The position numbers were made by a program, and so were the translations under genes. From assembly GCA_016204425.1 (NCBI GenBank), contig JACQKR010000046.1, forward strand, positions 1-41,983: a stretch of 41,983 nucleotides of DNA, given 5' to 3'. Source of the DNA: Candidatus Levyibacteriota bacterium (GTDB lineage Bacteria; Patescibacteriota; Microgenomatia; Levybacterales; UBA12049). Below the pieces are notes generated by a model that was not told the origin of the DNA, ran no database searches, and worked only from the letters and a program-made list of their open reading frames with translations. Below are positions 204-24,998 of this stretch, one piece after another; the first letter of the stretch is position 1, and each line of letters opens with the position of its first letter.

Positions 204-869
204 TTACGACCGTAATTTTCTTCGTAATACTTCAAGAAGTGACCGTGCTGTGTCTTGTCCACCAAGACCGAATGCGATTCCTCCTGCAATAGCGATCATC
301 GCCACAAACCCAGTAAAGAGAATGCGAATGAGATCCTGGGCAACGCCAAGCTGATTCAGCACCGCAAGCATTACAAATACGGTGATTGCCCACCGTGTAA
401 TTGATGCGATTGCTTGGGACACGTCTTCTGAAACACCACGAGTTGAGCCAAGGACCACATCATGCGCTAATCGAGCAAAGACGAGTCCGACAAGTGCGAT
501 AATTGCTGCGACAAAAACATTTGGCAAGTACAGCAAGAATGCATTGAGTACGGTGACAATTTGTGGTATTCCCCAGACTTCGGCTGTTGGAATAAGGAAA
601 ATAATGATTACAAACCAGCGAATAATCTCAGCCAAAATATTCGACCAAGAAAATTCTTTTTTCGCCTCCGGCACGCCGTATCGATGCAAAAATCCTTCAA
701 CGTTTAAGGCTTTTGCTATTCCAAGAACGAGGCGTTTCACAAAGGATGCGACGATAAAACCGATGAGAAGAAGGACAACGCCTGCGATCAAGTTTGGAAT
801 AAACGTGGCGGCTGCCAGAAACCCTCTGTTGATTGAGGAAATAAGGGTTTCCCCGACATTTGATGTCAT
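204..869 (-). CDS. Multi-pass membrane protein with repeated 'conserved TM helix' units (MscS N-terminal-like); function unknown
   Basis: 221-aa ORF with ATG at 869-867, preceded by an AAGGGGGGTGA Shine-Dalgarno. Several hydrophobic helices are each followed by charged loops (IAGVVLLLIGFIVASFVKRLV, VAAIIALVGLVFARLAHD, AITVFVMLAVLNQLGV). Family assigned from memory, not searched. Confidence 0.7.
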   Translation of the reverse strand: MTSNVGETLISSINRGFLAAATFIPNLIAGVVLLLIGFIVASFVKRLVLGIAKALNVEGFLHRYGVPEAKKEFSWSNILAEIIRWFVIIIFLIPTAEVWGIPQIVTVLNAFLLYLPNVFVAAIIALVGLVFARLAHDVVLGSTRGVSEDVSQAIASITRWAITVFVMLAVLNQLGVAQDLIRILFTGFVAMIAIAGGIAFGLGGQDTARSLLEVLRRKLRS

Positions 870-1001
870 AGTTTCACCCCCCTTCGCCTCGCCGTAGCTT
901 GAGCGGAGGCGGGTTTATCTACCCTAGCTACTGAGATGTAATAAAGTTTATATCTCATTGCTTCGGAGGGGCACGCCTCTGGACTTATTATTAGGACAGC
1001 T
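870..1001 (-). promoter_or_regulatory. Structured 5' leader, copy 1 of 3 (SD-sequestering GCGAAGGGGGGTGA box)
   Basis: In gene orientation: CCCCTCCGAAGC (rc of 960-971), then 46 nt containing a TGAGAT/ATCTCA hairpin, then CCCGCCTCCGC (rc of 903-913), TCAAGCTACGGCGAG, GCGAAGGGGGG (rc of 877-887), TGAAACT and ATG. It aligns with the leaders at 16129-16223 and 22319-22420. Confidence 0.45.
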
Positions 1002-15426: not shown

Positions 15427-16057
15427 TGAGGAGGTAGTTTTATGGAACCGAGGACTAGAGTACGTTGCCGGCATTGACGAAGTCGGTCGGGGAGCATTTG
15501 CCGGTCCCCTCGTCACTGCAGCAGTTATTTTCCCCAAAGATTGCAGGTTTTCAGATCAAGAGCTCTACGGCATCAACGATTCAAAACTCCTTACAAGCAA
15601 GAAGCGCTTTCAATTAGCCCGTAAGATAAAAAAAGAGGCCCTCAGCTTTTCGATATACGAAATACCGGTTTCCTACATTAACCGATACGGGATCGGGAGA
15701 GCGGCACAGTATGGATTTTTCAACGTTGTACAGTCGCTTGATAGAAAACCTGATTTTTGTTTGATCGATGCATTCAGTATCCGGAAGATGAGAAAACAAA
15801 TGCAAAAACCTATTATTCATGGAGACTCTTTATCATTCAGTATTGCGGCGGCATCGATTATCGCAAAGGTATTTCGTGATTATCGTATGGATGAATTAGG
15901 CTTCAGATACAACCAGTACAATTTTTCTCAGAATAAAGGGTACGGAACAGCAGATCACAGACGTGCGTTGGGCAAATATGGCCTTTGCAACATGCATAGG
16001 AAGTCTTTTAATCTGAGCCGGTATCTTCCAGTTCCTCCCATACTTGACAAAGTTTGA
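15404..16057 (+). CDS. rnhB: Ribonuclease HII
   Basis: VAGIDEVGRGAFAGPLV (DEDD catalytic start), DSKLLT, IAAASIIAKV and GYGT..H motifs. I prefer the ATG at 15404 over the 15245 ORF-track start. It overlaps the DUF2130 gene by 23 nt. Confidence 0.9.
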   Translation: MKLKPSFDEEVVLWNRGLEYVAGIDEVGRGAFAGPLVTAAVIFPKDCRFSDQELYGINDSKLLTSKKRFQLARKIKKEALSFSIYEIPVSYINRYGIGRAAQYGFFNVVQSLDRKPDFCLIDAFSIRKMRKQMQKPIIHGDSLSFSIAAASIIAKVFRDYRMDELGFRYNQYNFSQNKGYGTADHRRALGKYGLCNMHRKSFNLSRYLPVPPILDKV

Positions 16058-16128
16058 CAGTTATACAAAGATGAGTATATGTCCGAAAAGTCATCGAACG
16101 CTACATCTTCATCGGAAGAGGAGGCTTG

Positions 16129-16223
16129 CCTCCCGAAGCCCAGCCTCATAGGGCAATTTAATAAATTGAGGAGCGGAACCCCACTTCGCTAAAGCTACGC
16201 GGGGCGAAGGGAGGTGATTTTTA
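16129..16223 (+). promoter_or_regulatory. Structured 5' leader, copy 2 of 3
   Basis: CCTCCCGAAGC (16129-16139), CCTCA..TGAGG hairpin, CCCCACTTCGC (16179-16189), TAAAGCTACGCGGG, GCGAAGGGAGG (16204-16214), TGATTTTTA, ATG at 16224. A possible promoter TTGACA-16-TATATG lies at 16054-16081. Confidence 0.45.
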
Positions 16224-16619
16224 ATGGATTTCAAAAATATCTTGACACCAAGAGGCTTCTTAAGCGTCGGTGGTGTTGTCCTCATTCTTCTCGGCATTCT
16301 CGGTTTTGTCGGTGTAATCGGCCCAACAGCTTCCCAAAGTATATTAGGAACGTTCTGGTGGTTCGATAATGCAGAGAACGTTGCACACACTGTTTTGGGC
16401 GTAGTCGCACTCCTTGCCGTCTATATGGTAAAGGATGCAGCGATACATAAATGGCTTACACTGCTGGTGGGTGCATTTGCCTTGCTTGTCGGACTCTACA
16501 ATCTCGGTGGCGAGACGCTTCTTGCAGGAGCAAATCTTGAATCGCCAGCTGACATGTTTTTACATTTGCTCGTTGGTGTATGGGGACTGACTGCCGGACT
16601 GAAAGGAAAAGCGAAATAA
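16224..16619 (+). CDS. Small 4-TM membrane protein, function unknown
   Basis: 131 aa, four hydrophobic helices with an internally repeated N/D-x-x-H-x-x-x-G pattern (NAENVAHTVLG, ADMFLHLLVG). Confidence 0.7.
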   Translation: MDFKNILTPRGFLSVGGVVLILLGILGFVGVIGPTASQSILGTFWWFDNAENVAHTVLGVVALLAVYMVKDAAIHKWLTLLVGAFALLVGLYNLGGETLLAGANLESPADMFLHLLVGVWGLTAGLKGKAK

Positions 16620-21481: not shown

Positions 21482-22318
21482 TTAATTGTGATTAGTGTAA
21501 CTGACACATTCCCCTTGATTATTGAATGTAGGATTATTGAATGTTTTCCACCCATCATCCTTACATGCGTCCTTATTAGCTGGCGGTCCAACGACTGGTA
21601 CAATATCAGACTTCTCAGAATTATCAATTGCGAGAAAGCTGAAATCACTCGTAACAAACCAGCCGTACCTGTTGCCACCAACTGTTGAGCCGATGACATC
21701 AGTTGGGTCAGAAAGAGTCCATGAGTGCAGGACTGTACCACTACTATTCAAAACATCCATTACAACTTCCAGAATACCTGAACCGTTGTCTTGGAATGTA
21801 TGGCGGAGTGTATACCACCCTGACTGATTTACGAAAAATGGGTCTCTTCCCGGATTTGATGGCCACCCCGGAGCATTATTGCTCGCGCTCATTGCAAACT
21901 GTCCTGAAACGAGCGGATCTGTACCGACACTAAATATGAAATCTCTTCTATGGGTGTTAGCGGGTGTGCTAATTGCTGAAGAGAAATCGAATCTCTTATC
22001 TGTGCCGATTGTTGGATTCTCTCCCATATCAAGGTAAACATCAATCTTTGTCACGTATCCATTTGTAGGAAAGGTACTTTCATATCCACCCCATTTGGTA
22101 AATGCGTCTGCATCAACCTCGGCATGAAATGAACCATCTGCGGATGTTACTCCATTAGTACCACTTGCAACCCTAGTTATGTTTGTCGGATCAGTAAACC
22201 ATCCGTCCGTATTTATTTCAAATCCTTGGAAAAAATTTGCTGCAAATGCCGGGACAATACTTGCTCCGAGCATTGCTACTGATGCTGCTGTTCCTATTAA
22301 AATTTTTTTAATATTCAT
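21482..22318 (-). CDS. Secreted protein, unknown function, with a C-terminal Cys-pair motif
   Basis: ATG at 22318-22316 behind AAGGGGGGTGA (the ORF-track GTG at 22327 lies inside the SD). Signal peptide MNIKKILIGTAASVAMLGASIVPAFA. C-terminus KDACKDDGWKTFNNPTFNNQGECVSY. Confidence 0.68.
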   Translation of the reverse strand: MNIKKILIGTAASVAMLGASIVPAFAANFFQGFEINTDGWFTDPTNITRVASGTNGVTSADGSFHAEVDADAFTKWGGYESTFPTNGYVTKIDVYLDMGENPTIGTDKRFDFSSAISTPANTHRRDFIFSVGTDPLVSGQFAMSASNNAPGWPSNPGRDPFFVNQSGWYTLRHTFQDNGSGILEVVMDVLNSSGTVLHSWTLSDPTDVIGSTVGGNRYGWFVTSDFSFLAIDNSEKSDIVPVVGPPANKDACKDDGWKTFNNPTFNNQGECVSYTNHN

Positions 22319-22460
22319 AGTATTCACCCCCCTTCGCCCTCCGAAGCTTTATGCGTAGGAGGGTTTCGCACCTCTATTTTCTCTTAATGATATCTCAGTT
22401 GAGGTTCTGAGCTTCGGGGGATCTCCGGCTTATGCCTTCGACCTCCTTTCACCGGAAGTT
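22319..22460 (-). promoter_or_regulatory. Structured 5' leader, copy 3 of 3
   Basis: In gene orientation: CCCCCGAAGC (rc of 22411-22420), 47 nt containing CCTCA..GAGG, CCCTCCTACGC (rc of 22353-22363), ATAAAGCTTCGGAGG, GCGAAGGGGGG (rc of 22327-22337), TGAATACT, ATG. Confidence 0.45.
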
Positions 22461-23321: not shown

Positions 23322-23393
23322 GGGCCCGTAGCTCAACGGTAGAGCACTACCCTCTTAAGGTATTGGTTAGAGGTTCGAATCCTCTCGGGCTCA
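23322..23393 (+). tRNA. tRNA-Lys (anticodon CUU), no encoded CCA
   Basis: Acceptor GGGCCCG/CGGGCTC, D arm GCTC-AACGGTA-GAGC, anticodon loop CTCTTAA, T arm AGAGG-TTCGAAT-CCTCT, discriminator A. Confidence 0.9.
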
Positions 23394-23515
23394 CAACGAA
23401 AAATCTTGTGCTTTAGTACGGGATTTTTCGTTCATGACAATGAGAGAATCGTCTCGAATCCGGAGCTCCGCAGAGCGACGTCCTGGAACGAAGCGAACGG
23501 GACTCTCGGGCTCAC
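23394..23515 (+). repeat. tRNA-Lys trailer element, copy 2, ending in a perfect 13-nt echo of the tRNA 3' terminus
   Basis: Hairpin AACGAAAAAT..ATTTTTCGTT, whose stem changes compensate relative to copy 1. Then CATGACAATGAGAGAATCGTCTCGAATCCGGA (TCTCGAATC at 23452-23460), ..CGGGAC, and CTCTCGGGCTCAC (23503-23515), identical to 23382-23394. Confidence 0.55.
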
Positions 23516-23526
23516 TGCATTCCTGA

Positions 23527-23554
23527 TTGCATTTTGTCTAAACATGAGTATAAT
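23527..23554 (+). promoter_or_regulatory. Sigma70-like promoter TTGCAT-16-TATAAT for the T-box leader operon
   Basis: TTGCAT at 23527-23532, 16-nt spacer, TATAAT at 23549-23554. Confidence 0.5.
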
Positions 23555-23560
23555 ACTCAA

Positions 23561-23816
23561 AGAGGCGTCGAAGCTCAAAACAGAGCTGAGCCAGGGGAAG
23601 AAATCCCGCCATTAGGCGGAAGAGTAGAACCCTTCGGGAGTGCCCGTAACAGCACTGAATGAGAAGTCCGCCTTCTCCCGATTACATCGGGATTCGGCGA
23701 GACGAAGTAAGGTGGCACCACGAACAAAGTTCAAAGTTTAAAGTTGAAAGTACAAAGTTAAACCTTGAAAATGATCGTCCTTGCGAAAGCTAAATGCTTT
23801 TGAGAGGGCGTTTTTT
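23561..23816 (+). promoter_or_regulatory. T-box-like riboswitch leader (tRNA-sensing) with an enlarged antiterminator loop
   Basis: T-box sequence AAGTAAGGTGGCACCACG (23705-23722). Antiterminator: A1 GTAAGG (23707-12) / CCTTGC (23779-84), 7-nt bulge TGGCACC, A2 ACGA (23720-23) / TCGT (23775-78). The competing hairpin CGTCCT..AAAGC-TAAAT-GCTTT..AGGGCG (23776-23810) contains the GAGAGGG SD and is followed by T6 and the ATG at 23817. AGTA and CCGTAA (F-box-like) elements lie upstream. Specifier codon not identified. Confidence 0.65.
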
Positions 23817-24998
23817 ATGAGCAAAAAGAAAATATTTTCAAAACGTGCAGACGAACTGTCACTTTCGCCGACTCTCGCATTTGATGCAAAAGTCCGAATG
23901 CTTCAGAAAAAGGGGAAAGAAGTCCTCAATCTCACCTTGGGTGAGCCTGATTTTGCAACACCCGAATACATCCAGGACGCTGCAATTGGTGCGATAACGA
24001 GTGGCTTCACGCACTATACGCTCGTTGGCGGCATAGAAGAATTGCGAAAAGCGATCAGCAAAAAACTGCGAAAAGAAAATAATATTCGCTACGATTCGTC
24101 TGAAATTATTGTCGGAGCAGGAACAAAATTTCTTCTTTATGAGCTGTTTCAAGTGCTACTTGATAAAGGGGACGAGGTGATTCTTTCTTTGCCGACGTGG
24201 AGCACGTACGTTGAGCAAATCAAGCTCGCAGAGGGGAAGCCGGTTACGATCAAGCTCATGCCGCCTTTCCAGCTCACCGCAGAAGCAGTTGAGAAGAAAC
24301 TGAGCAAGAAAACCAAAATAATTCTCCTGAATTCTCCCGCCAATCCTACGGGTGCAATTATTTCGAAAAAAGAATTGCAAAATATCGTCCGACTGGCAAA
24401 GAAACACAAACTGTACATCATCAGTGATGAAATATACGAAAAAATCACCTATGGAGCAAAATTTGTTTCCCCGGCGTCGCTTCTGACCTCTATGCGGGAG
24501 CATATTCTGACGGTAAACGGATTTTCGAAAGCATATGCGATGACCGGCTGGAGGCTCGGGTATGTTGCGGGCTCTCAGGAAATCATCGCAAAAATGAATG
24601 CACTCCAGAGTCAAACGACGTCAAATGCGACATCTATTAGTCAAAAAGCAGGCGTTACAGCGCTCACCGGCCCCCAGCAGTCAATAAAAGATATGGTAAA
24701 AGAATTTACCAGGCGCCAAAACTATCTTGTGAAAGAATTCTTAACGATTCCGAATCTCTCGTTTACCCCGCCTGAAGGGGCATTTTACCTATTTGTCTCT
24801 GTTGAGCGAATGTTAGGCAAAAAGTTTCCATCATCTGAGGCGTGGTGCCGGCGCTTACTTGAGGAGGAAGGTGTCCCGGTCATTCCCGGAGAAGCATTCT
24901 ATTATCCCGGATATTTCCGCCTCAGTTTTGCCTCCTCCATGGAGATCCTGGAAAAAGCAACAGAAAAAATACGGAGGTTCTGCAAACGGTATGCCTAG
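23817..24998 (+). CDS. Class I pyridoxal-phosphate aminotransferase (aspartate aminotransferase-like)
   Basis: LNLTLGEPDF, NPANPTG, SDEIYEKITY and the NGFSKAYAMTGWRLGY (PLP-lysine) motifs. The ATG at 23817 is preferred because the TTG at 23781 lies inside the leader hairpin. Confidence 0.85.
   Translation: MSKKKIFSKRADELSLSPTLAFDAKVRMLQKKGKEVLNLTLGEPDFATPEYIQDAAIGAITSGFTHYTLVGGIEELRKAISKKLRKENNIRYDSSEIIVGAGTKFLLYELFQVLLDKGDEVILSLPTWSTYVEQIKLAEGKPVTIKLMPPFQLTAEAVEKKLSKKTKIILLNSPANPTGAIISKKELQNIVRLAKKHKLYIISDEIYEKITYGAKFVSPASLLTSMREHILTVNGFSKAYAMTGWRLGYVAGSQEIIAKMNALQSQTTSNATSISQKAGVTALTGPQQSIKDMVKEFTRRQNYLVKEFLTIPNLSFTPPEGAFYLFVSVERMLGKKFPSSEAWCRRLLEEEGVPVIPGEAFYYPGYFRLSFASSMEILEKATEKIRRFCKRYA

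Follow-up and report, generated by a model that had tools for sequence, protein, structure and literature searches.

A recurrent, apparently undescribed folded mRNA leader predicted to mask the Shine-Dalgarno sequence in uncultivated Microgenomates-type bacteria

Introduction

Three genes on a single contig of an uncultivated bacterium are preceded by leaders built from the same ordered sequence blocks, which raises the question of whether these leaders are copies of one folded RNA and, if so, what this RNA does to the genes behind it. The stretch of DNA analysed, hereafter the window, comprises 41,983 nt of Candidatus Levyibacteriota bacterium (assembly GCA_016204425.1, contig JACQKR010000046.1, positions 1-41,983, forward strand). 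The leader is a real folded RNA that has apparently not been described so far, and it stands in front of the three window genes and of at least 75 others in related uncultivated bacteria. With a probability of about 0.55, it is read here as a lineage-restricted, modular 5' RNA of Microgenomates-type members of the candidate phyla radiation (CPR), Levybacteria-like in the window and Woesebacteria-like elsewhere, that masks the Shine-Dalgarno sequence (SD) and works as a two-state translational gate.

CPR bacteria, or Patescibacteria, have tiny genomes in which few regulators can be recognised, and their control of gene expression is hardly understood at all. If the reading is right, a portable leader masking the SD of many of their most strongly expressed genes would offer a simple means, specific to the lineage, of setting or co-regulating protein output after transcription. 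The leader is a defined RNA of ~110 nt with clear mutational predictions and is amenable to tests in vitro, although its hosts are uncultivated.

Three diverged copies in the window

The original prediction had described ordered blocks (A, a spacer hairpin, B, A' and the SD-bearing B') common to three 5' regions, namely the reverse complement of 870-1001, 16129-16223 and the reverse complement of 22319-22460. These blocks are present in the sequence, and so are the two variable hairpins assigned to the spacer, TGAGAT/ATCTCA and CCTCA/TGAGG. They make up three diverged copies of one leader, each ~100-110 nt long, which stop 5-7 nt short of the starts at 869 (-), 16224 (+) and 22318 (-) and are numbered copies 1, 2 and 3 in this order. 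The predicted extent needs correction only at its 5' end: in copies 2 and 1 the element begins ~10 nt upstream of block A, with an SD-like GGAGG whose partner in a hairpin is the C-rich stretch of that block (coordinates in Table 1).

The word GCGAAGGGRGGTGA occurs exactly three times in the window, every time 5-7 nt 5' of an ATG. The longer pattern AAGCTNCGNNNGGCGAAGGGRGGTGA matches two of the window copies and has no match in 100 shuffles; copy 1 escapes it because of one extra base. Moreover, a covariance model (CM) built from the copies of other organisms recognises all three window copies with 54.8 to 79.1 bits and, with filters off, finds no further leader in the window. Over the aligned leader, the mean column identity of the three copies is 68% and their flanks are unrelated; therefore, they are not recent duplicates, which also rules out a mobile promoter with identical flanks.

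Occurrence in related bacteria and novelty

Metagenome contigs were scanned with the pattern AAGCTNCGN{2,5}GGCGAAGGGNGGTG, which fixes only the 3' 20 bases and leaves block A, the spacer and block B free. The scan matched 104 stretches, against ~4 estimated by chance; ~90 of them are true copies, 78 are non-redundant, and 75 of these 78 form the core alignment (A3). All 75 lie 3-11 nt 5' of a start codon (ATG, GTG or TTG). The closest homologues of two window proteins belong to Candidatus Levybacteria and other Patescibacteria and the RpoA of one carrier is nearest to that of Woesebacteria, so that the motif spans Microgenomates lineages. The viral contigs that were scanned for the motif contain no match.

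In Rfam 15, only tRNAs reach the gathering score over the whole window, the region around copy 2 (15900-16400) has no match at E<=10, and 12 motif-bearing metagenome loci have none at E<=1. This agrees with the earlier statement that the motif was not recognised as a named riboswitch class. Likewise, literature searches on leader motifs of CPR or Microgenomates bacteria yielded no description of such a leader. No 16S 3' end that could verify the anti-SD was found in the motif-bearing loci.

Consensus anatomy

From 5' to 3', the leader consists of segment 0 (Seg0, GGRGG), a loop that is usually CUUG, the C-rich segment A (SegA; CCUCCC, CCCCCC or CCACCC) followed by GAAGCC, a middle domain, often (A/U)GCGAAA, block B (CCNNNC-UNCGC), NUAAAGCUNCG, block A' (GNNNGG), CGAA, the SD GGGRGGUGA, a gap of 5-9 nt and the start codon. 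Blocks B and A' form helix P3, with the consensus CCNNNC-UNCGC ... GCUNCG-GNNNGG; P3 and its loop are conserved across copies, in part because the scan pattern fixed them. The 5' domain (Seg0, SegA and GAAGCC) is found in 51 of 76 copies, and the remaining 25 are core-only, that is, P3 and the SD. The middle domain has no conserved sequence and varies in form: it may be absent, a mini-hairpin of a few nucleotides (CC-CGAA-GG and similar), a simple hairpin as in copy 1, or a pair of stems, S1 and S2, in the order of an H-type pseudoknot as in copies 2 and 3. Script detection found the S1/S2 layout in 37% of the long-middle copies versus 11% of shuffles.

Just 5' of copy 3, which has no canonical Seg0, the minus strand carries an extra hairpin ACTTCC…GGAGGT followed by CGAAGGC (22439-22460), that is, another SD-like word and another CGAAG word.

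Helices supported by covariation

Helix P3 is paired in 96.2% of the alignment cells and shows 35 compensatory cells at three pairs, a number reached by none of 500 shuffles, with a covariation score of 0.199 against 0.063 for shuffles. Its variants include CCCUCC:GGAGGG, CCAUCC:GGAUGG, CCCUAC:GUAGGG, CCCGCC:GGCGGG, CCCACC:GGUGGG and CCCCAC:GUGGGG, and RNAalifold independently gives exactly this helix. The original prediction had A' pairing alternatively with B or with A. The first of these pairings is the one that covaries, while the second (GAAGC with GCUWC) shows no covariation (Fisher p=0.5) and is mismatched in its commonest combination.

The same prediction had the SD buried by pairing between B and B'. 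This helix is 87.8% complementary, carries no compensatory change, does not rise above shuffles, and is unpaired in 42 of 75 copies at the SD position that was free to vary. Masking as such is upheld by the folding predictions, with a different partner: the strand that covaries with the SD is the C-rich run of block A. Specifically, SegA reads CCU... (CCUCCC) in 17 of 17 copies with the SD GGGAGG, CCAC in 4 of 4 with GGGUGG, and mostly CCCC, with some CCUC (U·G), in the 29 with GGGGGG. With the middle domain cut from the alignment, the SegA:SD helix is 95% paired and has 14 compensatory cells, again reached by none of 500 shuffles; the pair types are C-G (25), U-A (13), A-U (1) and U·G (3). 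U·G is common and tolerated whereas C·A is avoided, a pattern that points to pairing in the sense-strand RNA. In three loci (L100, L117, L123), SegA is complementary to the SD and not to Seg0, and copy 3 of the window keeps the SegA:SD helix despite having no Seg0. RNAalifold on 20 full-length, unspliced copies (A6) likewise returns this long-distance helix, lengthened by GCC:GGC across a symmetric GAA/GAA loop.

Two further helices involve parts of the same segments. The P1 hairpin, Seg0 with SegA, has a median of -7.5 kcal/mol and is present in most copies with a 5' domain; of the window copies, 1 and 3 have it weakly or not at all. Across 50 copies, its compensatory cells number 18, a count that 1 of 500 shuffles attains; this covariation is largely coupled to the SD type and lends P1 moderate support. 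Judged from these alignments, SegA would have two mutually exclusive partners, Seg0 and the SD. In the GCGAAA-bearing subclass only, a helix named Palt pairs xGCGA with UCGCy (A-U 15, U-A 5, C-G 2; Fisher p=0.003), with inner compensations in L094 and L100, and Palt together with P3 would give an H-type pseudoknot topology beside the SD. Across all 75 copies, an upstream GCGAA:UUCGC hairpin has no support; it holds in the GCGAAA-bearing subclass alone, and there it covaries.

Of the switch layout proposed at the outset, what holds up is that a structured leader recurs and can pair in alternative ways; the helices B:B' and A:A' drawn for it find no support in covariation. A lack of additional copies or of covariation in relatives had been named as the result that would overturn the idea, and covarying copies do exist in relatives.

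A possible two-state gate on translation

Folding was predicted with a nearest-neighbour model without pseudoknots. The mean probability of an unpaired SD is 0.16, and the best SD-open fold lies at a median of 7 kcal/mol above the minimum free energy. In 38 of 47 copies, the SegA:SD fold has the lower energy of the two; the three window copies are among them, with margins of 10 (copy 2), 7 (copy 3) and 6 kcal/mol (copy 1) over the SD-open fold.

In the gate reading, the long-distance SegA:SD helix would enclose the middle domain and P3 in a closed state, with translation off or low. Conversely, formation of P1 would define an open state that leaves the SD accessible behind P3 and lets translation proceed. 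By toggling between the two, the leader would gate the initiation, and probably the stability, of mRNAs for abundant proteins. The trigger is most likely general and physical or kinetic, such as co-transcriptional trapping of SegA in P1, temperature, competition by the 30S subunit, or loss of Seg0 through 5' processing; a gene-specific metabolite is less likely.

Several points weigh against this gate. With 25 of 76 copies devoid of Seg0 and SegA, masking by SegA is not a universal function of the leader. The GGGUGG class amounts to ~3 independent loci, only one SD position was free to covary under the scan pattern, and shared descent could inflate the association between SegA and the SD, the sequences being partly kin. 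As the pattern fixes the 3' 20 bases, the conservation of AAGCUNCG, GGCGAAGGG and the SD is partly a matter of ascertainment. In 24 of 51 copies, many of them of the GGGGGG type, B:B' comes out ahead of SegA:SD in nearest-neighbour folding, so that B:B' may form in some copies; selection is visible on B:A' and not on B:B'. Lastly, a fixed spacing between promoter and Seg0, which would put P1 at the 5' end, was sought and not found.

The same alternative pairings allow a second reading, in which the leader is a true sensor, either a riboswitch or a site for a protein or small RNA. Its conserved GAA, GCGAAA, UNCGC-NUAAAGCU and CGAA elements would form, with the pseudoknots, a pocket or docking site, and one global effector (an alarmone, a nucleotide, an ion or an RNA-binding protein) would shift the equilibrium between P1 and the long-distance helix and so define a post-transcriptional regulon. 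Such a sensor would account for the two alternative partners of every conserved segment, as in expression platforms, for the pseudoknot topology of Palt and P3 adjoining the SD, with compensatory changes in Palt, and for the S1/S2 stems as a second pseudoknot-like module enriched over shuffles; a single leader common to many growth-related genes would suit a global signal. However, no sequence is conserved in the middle domain, which many copies lack or have only in tiny form, one third of the copies are without the 5' domain, the conserved 3' nucleotides were fixed by the scan pattern and no Rfam relative exists. The downstream genes share no pathway, and the orthologous genes of close relatives manage without the element. 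A true sensor is thus unlikely. The riboswitch-type platform of the original prediction is unlikely in its metabolite form, given the diversity of the genes, the variable or absent middle domain and the copies that lack the 5' domain.

Downstream genes

The three window genes are as first reported: 204-869 (-) codes for a transmembrane-helix protein of the MS_channel_1st_1 family, 16224-16619 (+) for a DUF4383 protein, and 21482-22318 (-) for a secreted protein with a signal peptide and no Pfam match. Their description as envelope-protein genes does not extend to the leader in general, since HU, RpoA, L7/L12, S21, ATP synthase c and DUF5679 proteins are common downstream of it. Altogether, 69 downstream proteins match 40 Pfam families, including DUF5679 zinc ribbons (7), HU (5), DUF4870 (4), Camelysin-like secreted proteins (3) and, with two each, LemA, RpoA, DUF378, ATP synthase c (ATP-synt_C/atpE), L7/L12, S21, AhpC and MS_channel_1st_1; single matches include a response regulator, NYN, a cupredoxin and a transglycosylase-associated protein. 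The set belongs to no single pathway, and its common thread is abundant, often small, mostly highly expressed proteins. Since its C-rich strand pairs with the SD, the leader most likely serves to gate the translation of such highly expressed genes and not to sense a metabolite. A ribosomal-protein autoregulatory leader is out, as the same leader precedes rplL, rpsU and rpoA as well as HU, atpE, membrane and secreted genes.

Abundant products could also be served without any switching. In this alternative, the leader is a constitutive expression or stability module: its stable structure 5' of an unusually long SD would shield the mRNA against 5'-dependent decay and retain ribosomes, and the alternative pairings would be by-products of segments composed of SD-like and anti-SD-like words. 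The link to HU, L7/L12, S21, RpoA and AtpE fits such a module, and so do the core-only copies, which retain just P3 and the SD, and the leader-free orthologues, which retain a strong SD. The extended SD GAAGGGAGGUGA would moreover pair with ~12 nt of a typical 16S 3' tail, which may not be that of the host. Conversely, each base of SegA follows its counterpart in the SD, even in GGGUGG copies whose CCAC matches the SD while Seg0 does not, and a mere 5' structure needs no such match; the SD is predicted to be mostly masked, which would be odd for a pure enhancer. In addition, the rpoA copies sit between rpsD and rpoA, conserved neighbours in the ribosomal-protein operon of related contigs, so that the leader is not always at a 5' end. 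Taken together, a purely constitutive module is distinctly unlikely.

Patchy distribution and stand-alone hairpins

The leader is absent from many orthologues of the genes that carry it. At the DUF4383 loci of the closest Levybacteria type, only a promoter, a short leader and a strong SD were found, and a CM search of all 80 CPR DUF4383 loci returned no full leader and one weak look-alike (L054). Four Levybacteria genomes hold orthologues of gene 204-869 (67-80% identical) without a structured leader: a promoter, ~70 nt of unstructured leader and a strong SD are all that precedes them, and in three of the four a tRNA-gene fragment, as beside the window gene, lies within the 230 nt upstream that were shown. 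A more distant orthologue (L142) has a leader more like window copy 2 than copy 1. In four Woesebacteria-like contigs, the motif is absent from the rpoA orthologues, which have only GGAAGGUGGUGA or a different leader. As orthologues in close relatives do without it, the leader is an optional module of patchy distribution that individual genes have gained or lost.

Orthologues without the motif retain very long SDs (GCGAAGGGAGGTGA, GGAAGGTGGTGAA; L186:9967-10007, L189:4902-4936, L192:10014-10048), so that the extended SD is a trait of the lineage, older than the structured leader. In L192, rpoA seems to have been called from a start ~42 nt too far upstream, judging by the ATG that the SD supports. 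Another rpoA orthologue (L190:8330-8409, +) has a different, GC-rich structured intergenic leader (…CCCAGGGGCTTTAGGACCATAGGGCCTTAGACCCGGAGGGAGGTGA) instead of the motif, and similar GGCC-rich leaders occur 5' of genes in L107:439-506 and L130:1854-1920. The DUF4383 genes of Parcubacteria- and Saccharibacteria-type genomes are preceded by a box (A)AAGGTCG, often just after a TATAMT box; it is found within 130 nt upstream of the start in 35 of 80 loci (among them L007, L009-L011, L013, L015, L020, L023, L024, L029, L030, L032 and L035), against 0.01 expected per such interval, and represents a separate candidate cis-regulatory motif of this family.

The CM also detects stand-alone hairpins of the form CCCNCC-UUCGC-URAAGC-UUCG-GNGGG with covarying stems; the five outside the window that are listed in Table 1 have the conserved loop TTCGC-TRAAGC-TWCG in common. 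One hairpin lies in the window inside ORF 1377-2810, whose product is mercuric-reductase/Lpd-like. Compared with the mercuric reductase structures PDB 4ywo and 5x1y, this product has an in-frame insertion of 10 residues (PHFAEASRGK) at the site of the hairpin, which has the look of a small palindrome that enters genes in the manner of Rickettsia palindromic elements. By its sequence contexts, the P3-like hairpin alone matches a dispersed palindromic repeat, being multi-copy, found in varied settings and inserted in frame into an ORF. The link to such a hairpin suggests how regulatory modules of this kind may arise and spread.

These hairpins bear on a further alternative, namely that the leader is mainly a selfish dispersed palindromic cassette, similar to miniature inverted-repeat transposable elements, repetitive extragenic palindromic (REP) elements or Rickettsia palindromic elements, that lands near SDs and affects regulation incidentally. 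A cassette of this sort would explain the patchy presence among the orthologues of gene 204-869 (four Levybacteria without it) and of rpoA (at least three of four orthologues without it), the several copies per genome at unrelated genes (three in 42 kb here), and the lone P3-like hairpins in ORF 1377-2810 (in frame, 10 codons), in rplL (L117) and after tRNA genes (L171, L071). It does not explain why full leaders are always oriented and positioned to take in the SD, nor why compensatory changes maintain three helices with a sense-RNA-specific asymmetry between G·U and C·A. Neither identical copies nor shared flanks were seen, viral contigs gave no match, and no target-site duplication or transposase was identified, though no systematic search for these was made. 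As the main explanation, a selfish cassette is therefore very unlikely; either the constitutive stabiliser or the selfish cassette possibly holds in part.

The gate could also be one side of something larger. It is an unlikely extension that a Microgenomates-wide post-transcriptional regulon exists, in which a bistable RNA with two pseudoknot modules and a three-way junction senses one global signal (an alarmone, a nucleotide, an ion, temperature, a dedicated RNA-binding protein or ribosome availability), coordinately gates the translation of the most abundant proteins (HU, RpoA, L7/L12, S21, AtpE, small membrane and stress proteins) in hosts with very few transcription factors, and passes from gene to gene in the form of a portable cassette that goes back to a dispersed palindromic hairpin.

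Feature coordinates and a separate observation

Table 1. Positions of the leader copies, their parts and the stand-alone P3-like hairpins (window numbering unless a contig handle is given; minus-strand parts are listed 5' to 3')
Feature	Position	Strand	Basis or details
Copy 2, whole leader, from Seg0 to the base before the ATG of 16224-16619 (DUF4383)	16120-16223	+	Sequence; CM core match 16165-16230, 72.7 bits
Copy 2, P1 hairpin	16120-16134	+	Seg0 GGAGG 16120-16124, loop CUUG 16125-16128, SegA CCUCCC 16129-16134 (anti-SD strand); predicted -7.6 kcal/mol
Copy 2, middle domain	16135-16178	+	Read from sequence: GAA linker; S1 and S2; AGCGGAA 16172-16178
Copy 2, S1	16138-16141 with 16151-16154	+	GCCC with GGGC; S1 and S2 in pseudoknot order
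Copy 2, S2	16144-16148 with 16167-16171	+	CCUCA with UGAGG; S1 and S2 in pseudoknot order
Copy 2, P3 hairpin	16179-16204	+	B CCCCAC 16179-16184, UUCGC, loop UAAAGCUAC, A' GCGGGG 16199-16204; covariation, RNAalifold
Copy 2, CGAA linker and extended SD	16205-16217	+	SD GGGAGGUGA 16209-16217; SegA:SD covariation, RNAalifold
Copy 2, SegA:SD helix	16129-16134 with 16209-16214	+	Predicted pairs C16129-G16214 through C16134-G16209, including U16131-A16212
Copy 1, whole leader, upstream of gene 204-869	870-980	-	Sequence; CM 54.8 bits
Copy 1, Seg0	980-976	-	GGAGG; weak
Copy 1, SegA	972-965	-	GCCCCUCC
Copy 1, GAAGC	964-960	-	
Copy 1, simple hairpin	957-952 with 937-932	-	
Copy 1, P3	913-908 with 893-887	-	B with A'
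Copy 1, SD	882-874	-	GGGGGGUGA
Copy 3, whole leader, upstream of gene 21482-22318	22319-22420	-	CM 79.1 bits; pseudoknot layout detected by script; no Seg0
Copy 3, SegA	22420-22416	-	CCCCC
Copy 3, GAAGC	22415-22411	-	
Copy 3, S1	22411-22407 with 22398-22394	-	
Copy 3, S2	22404-22401 with 22374-22371	-	
Copy 3, P3	22363-22358 with 22342-22337	-	B with A'
Copy 3, SD	22332-22324	-	GGGGGGUGA
P3-like hairpin inside ORF 1377-2810 (not a leader)	1764-1790 (27 nt)	+	CCCCAC UUCGC UGAAGC UUCG AGGGG; CM E=6e-6
P3-like hairpin directly 3' of a tRNA gene	L171:1660-1683	-	Conserved loop TTCGC-TRAAGC-TWCG
P3-like hairpin directly 3' of a tRNA gene	L071:2038-2068	+	Conserved loop TTCGC-TRAAGC-TWCG
P3-like hairpin within the rplL ORF	L117:763-823	-	
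Stand-alone P3-like hairpin, CPR contig	L011:16658-16684		
Stand-alone P3-like hairpin, CPR contig	L108:2791-2818		

Elsewhere in the window, the interval between a tRNA (23322-23393) and ORF 23781-24998 holds a second candidate structure at 23555-23740 (+), with a strong fold over 23400-23740 (z=-4.2). It follows a promoter-like TTGCAT-N16-TATAAT, contains AAGGTGGCACCACGA, which resembles a T-box sequence, and has only a weak T-box match in Rfam (10 bits, E=6.6). The gene on its 3' side codes for a class I/II aminotransferase and is followed by one for an archaeal-type phosphoenolpyruvate carboxylase. This region may be a divergent T-box-like leader or another non-coding RNA.

Comparison with known systems

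SAM-II and preQ1-II are H-type pseudoknot riboswitch classes whose expression platforms sequester the SD. The Microgenomates leader resembles riboswitch platforms in that mutually exclusive helices involve the SD, pseudoknot-like modules adjoin it and segments have two partners. It differs from them in having apparently no conserved aptamer core, a variable or absent middle, genes without a common pathway and no suggested ligand. As in the RNA thermometers of the ROSE and fourU types, the SD is masked by an imperfect helix with G·U pairs that could melt; in contrast to these, the genes behind it are not heat-shock or virulence genes and the fold is a multi-helix junction and not a single hairpin. 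Given this other gene context and the lack of an Rfam match, the leader does not belong to either thermometer type.

The 5' mRNA stabilisers, such as STAB-SD of Bacillus thuringiensis cryIIIA and the Bacillus subtilis gsiB and aprE leaders, rely on SD-like sequences or a strong ribosome-binding site. The Microgenomates leader is similar in carrying an SD-like GGAGG far 5' of the start, a very strong ribosome-binding site and highly expressed genes; no covarying anti-SD or conserved hairpin is known from the STAB-SD, gsiB and aprE elements. Rickettsia palindromic elements and REP elements are dispersed palindromic repeats, the former of which also insert in frame into genes. Like them, the P3-like hairpin is met on its own, in frame within ORFs and behind tRNAs, and also in leaders; unlike them, it is much shorter (~27-30 nt), and full leaders are fixed in orientation and position with respect to the SD.

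Among documented mechanisms, the nearest is that of the maturation-gene leader of the Levivirus MS2, a resemblance that would lie in the way of working and not in descent. In the 5' untranslated region of that gene, an upstream complementary sequence beside the 5' hairpin base-pairs to the SD over ~80 nt and encloses three arms (PMC4615214). This long-distance helix covaries, and a metastable local hairpin can sequester the upstream strand and leave the SD free, and it delays closure (PMC4615214). No homology between the two leaders was found: Rfam gave no match of any kind, and none of the viral contigs matched. The upstream strand of the Microgenomates leader likewise pairs with the SD under covariation, at the level of pairing and compensation given above for SegA. 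In contrast to MS2, the 5' hairpin of the Microgenomates leader itself supplies the anti-SD, as its 3' arm, and kinetic control is known from the MS2 side only. Lastly, MS2 uses its leader for one viral gene, whereas the Microgenomates leader is cellular, multi-copy and placed in front of many genes.

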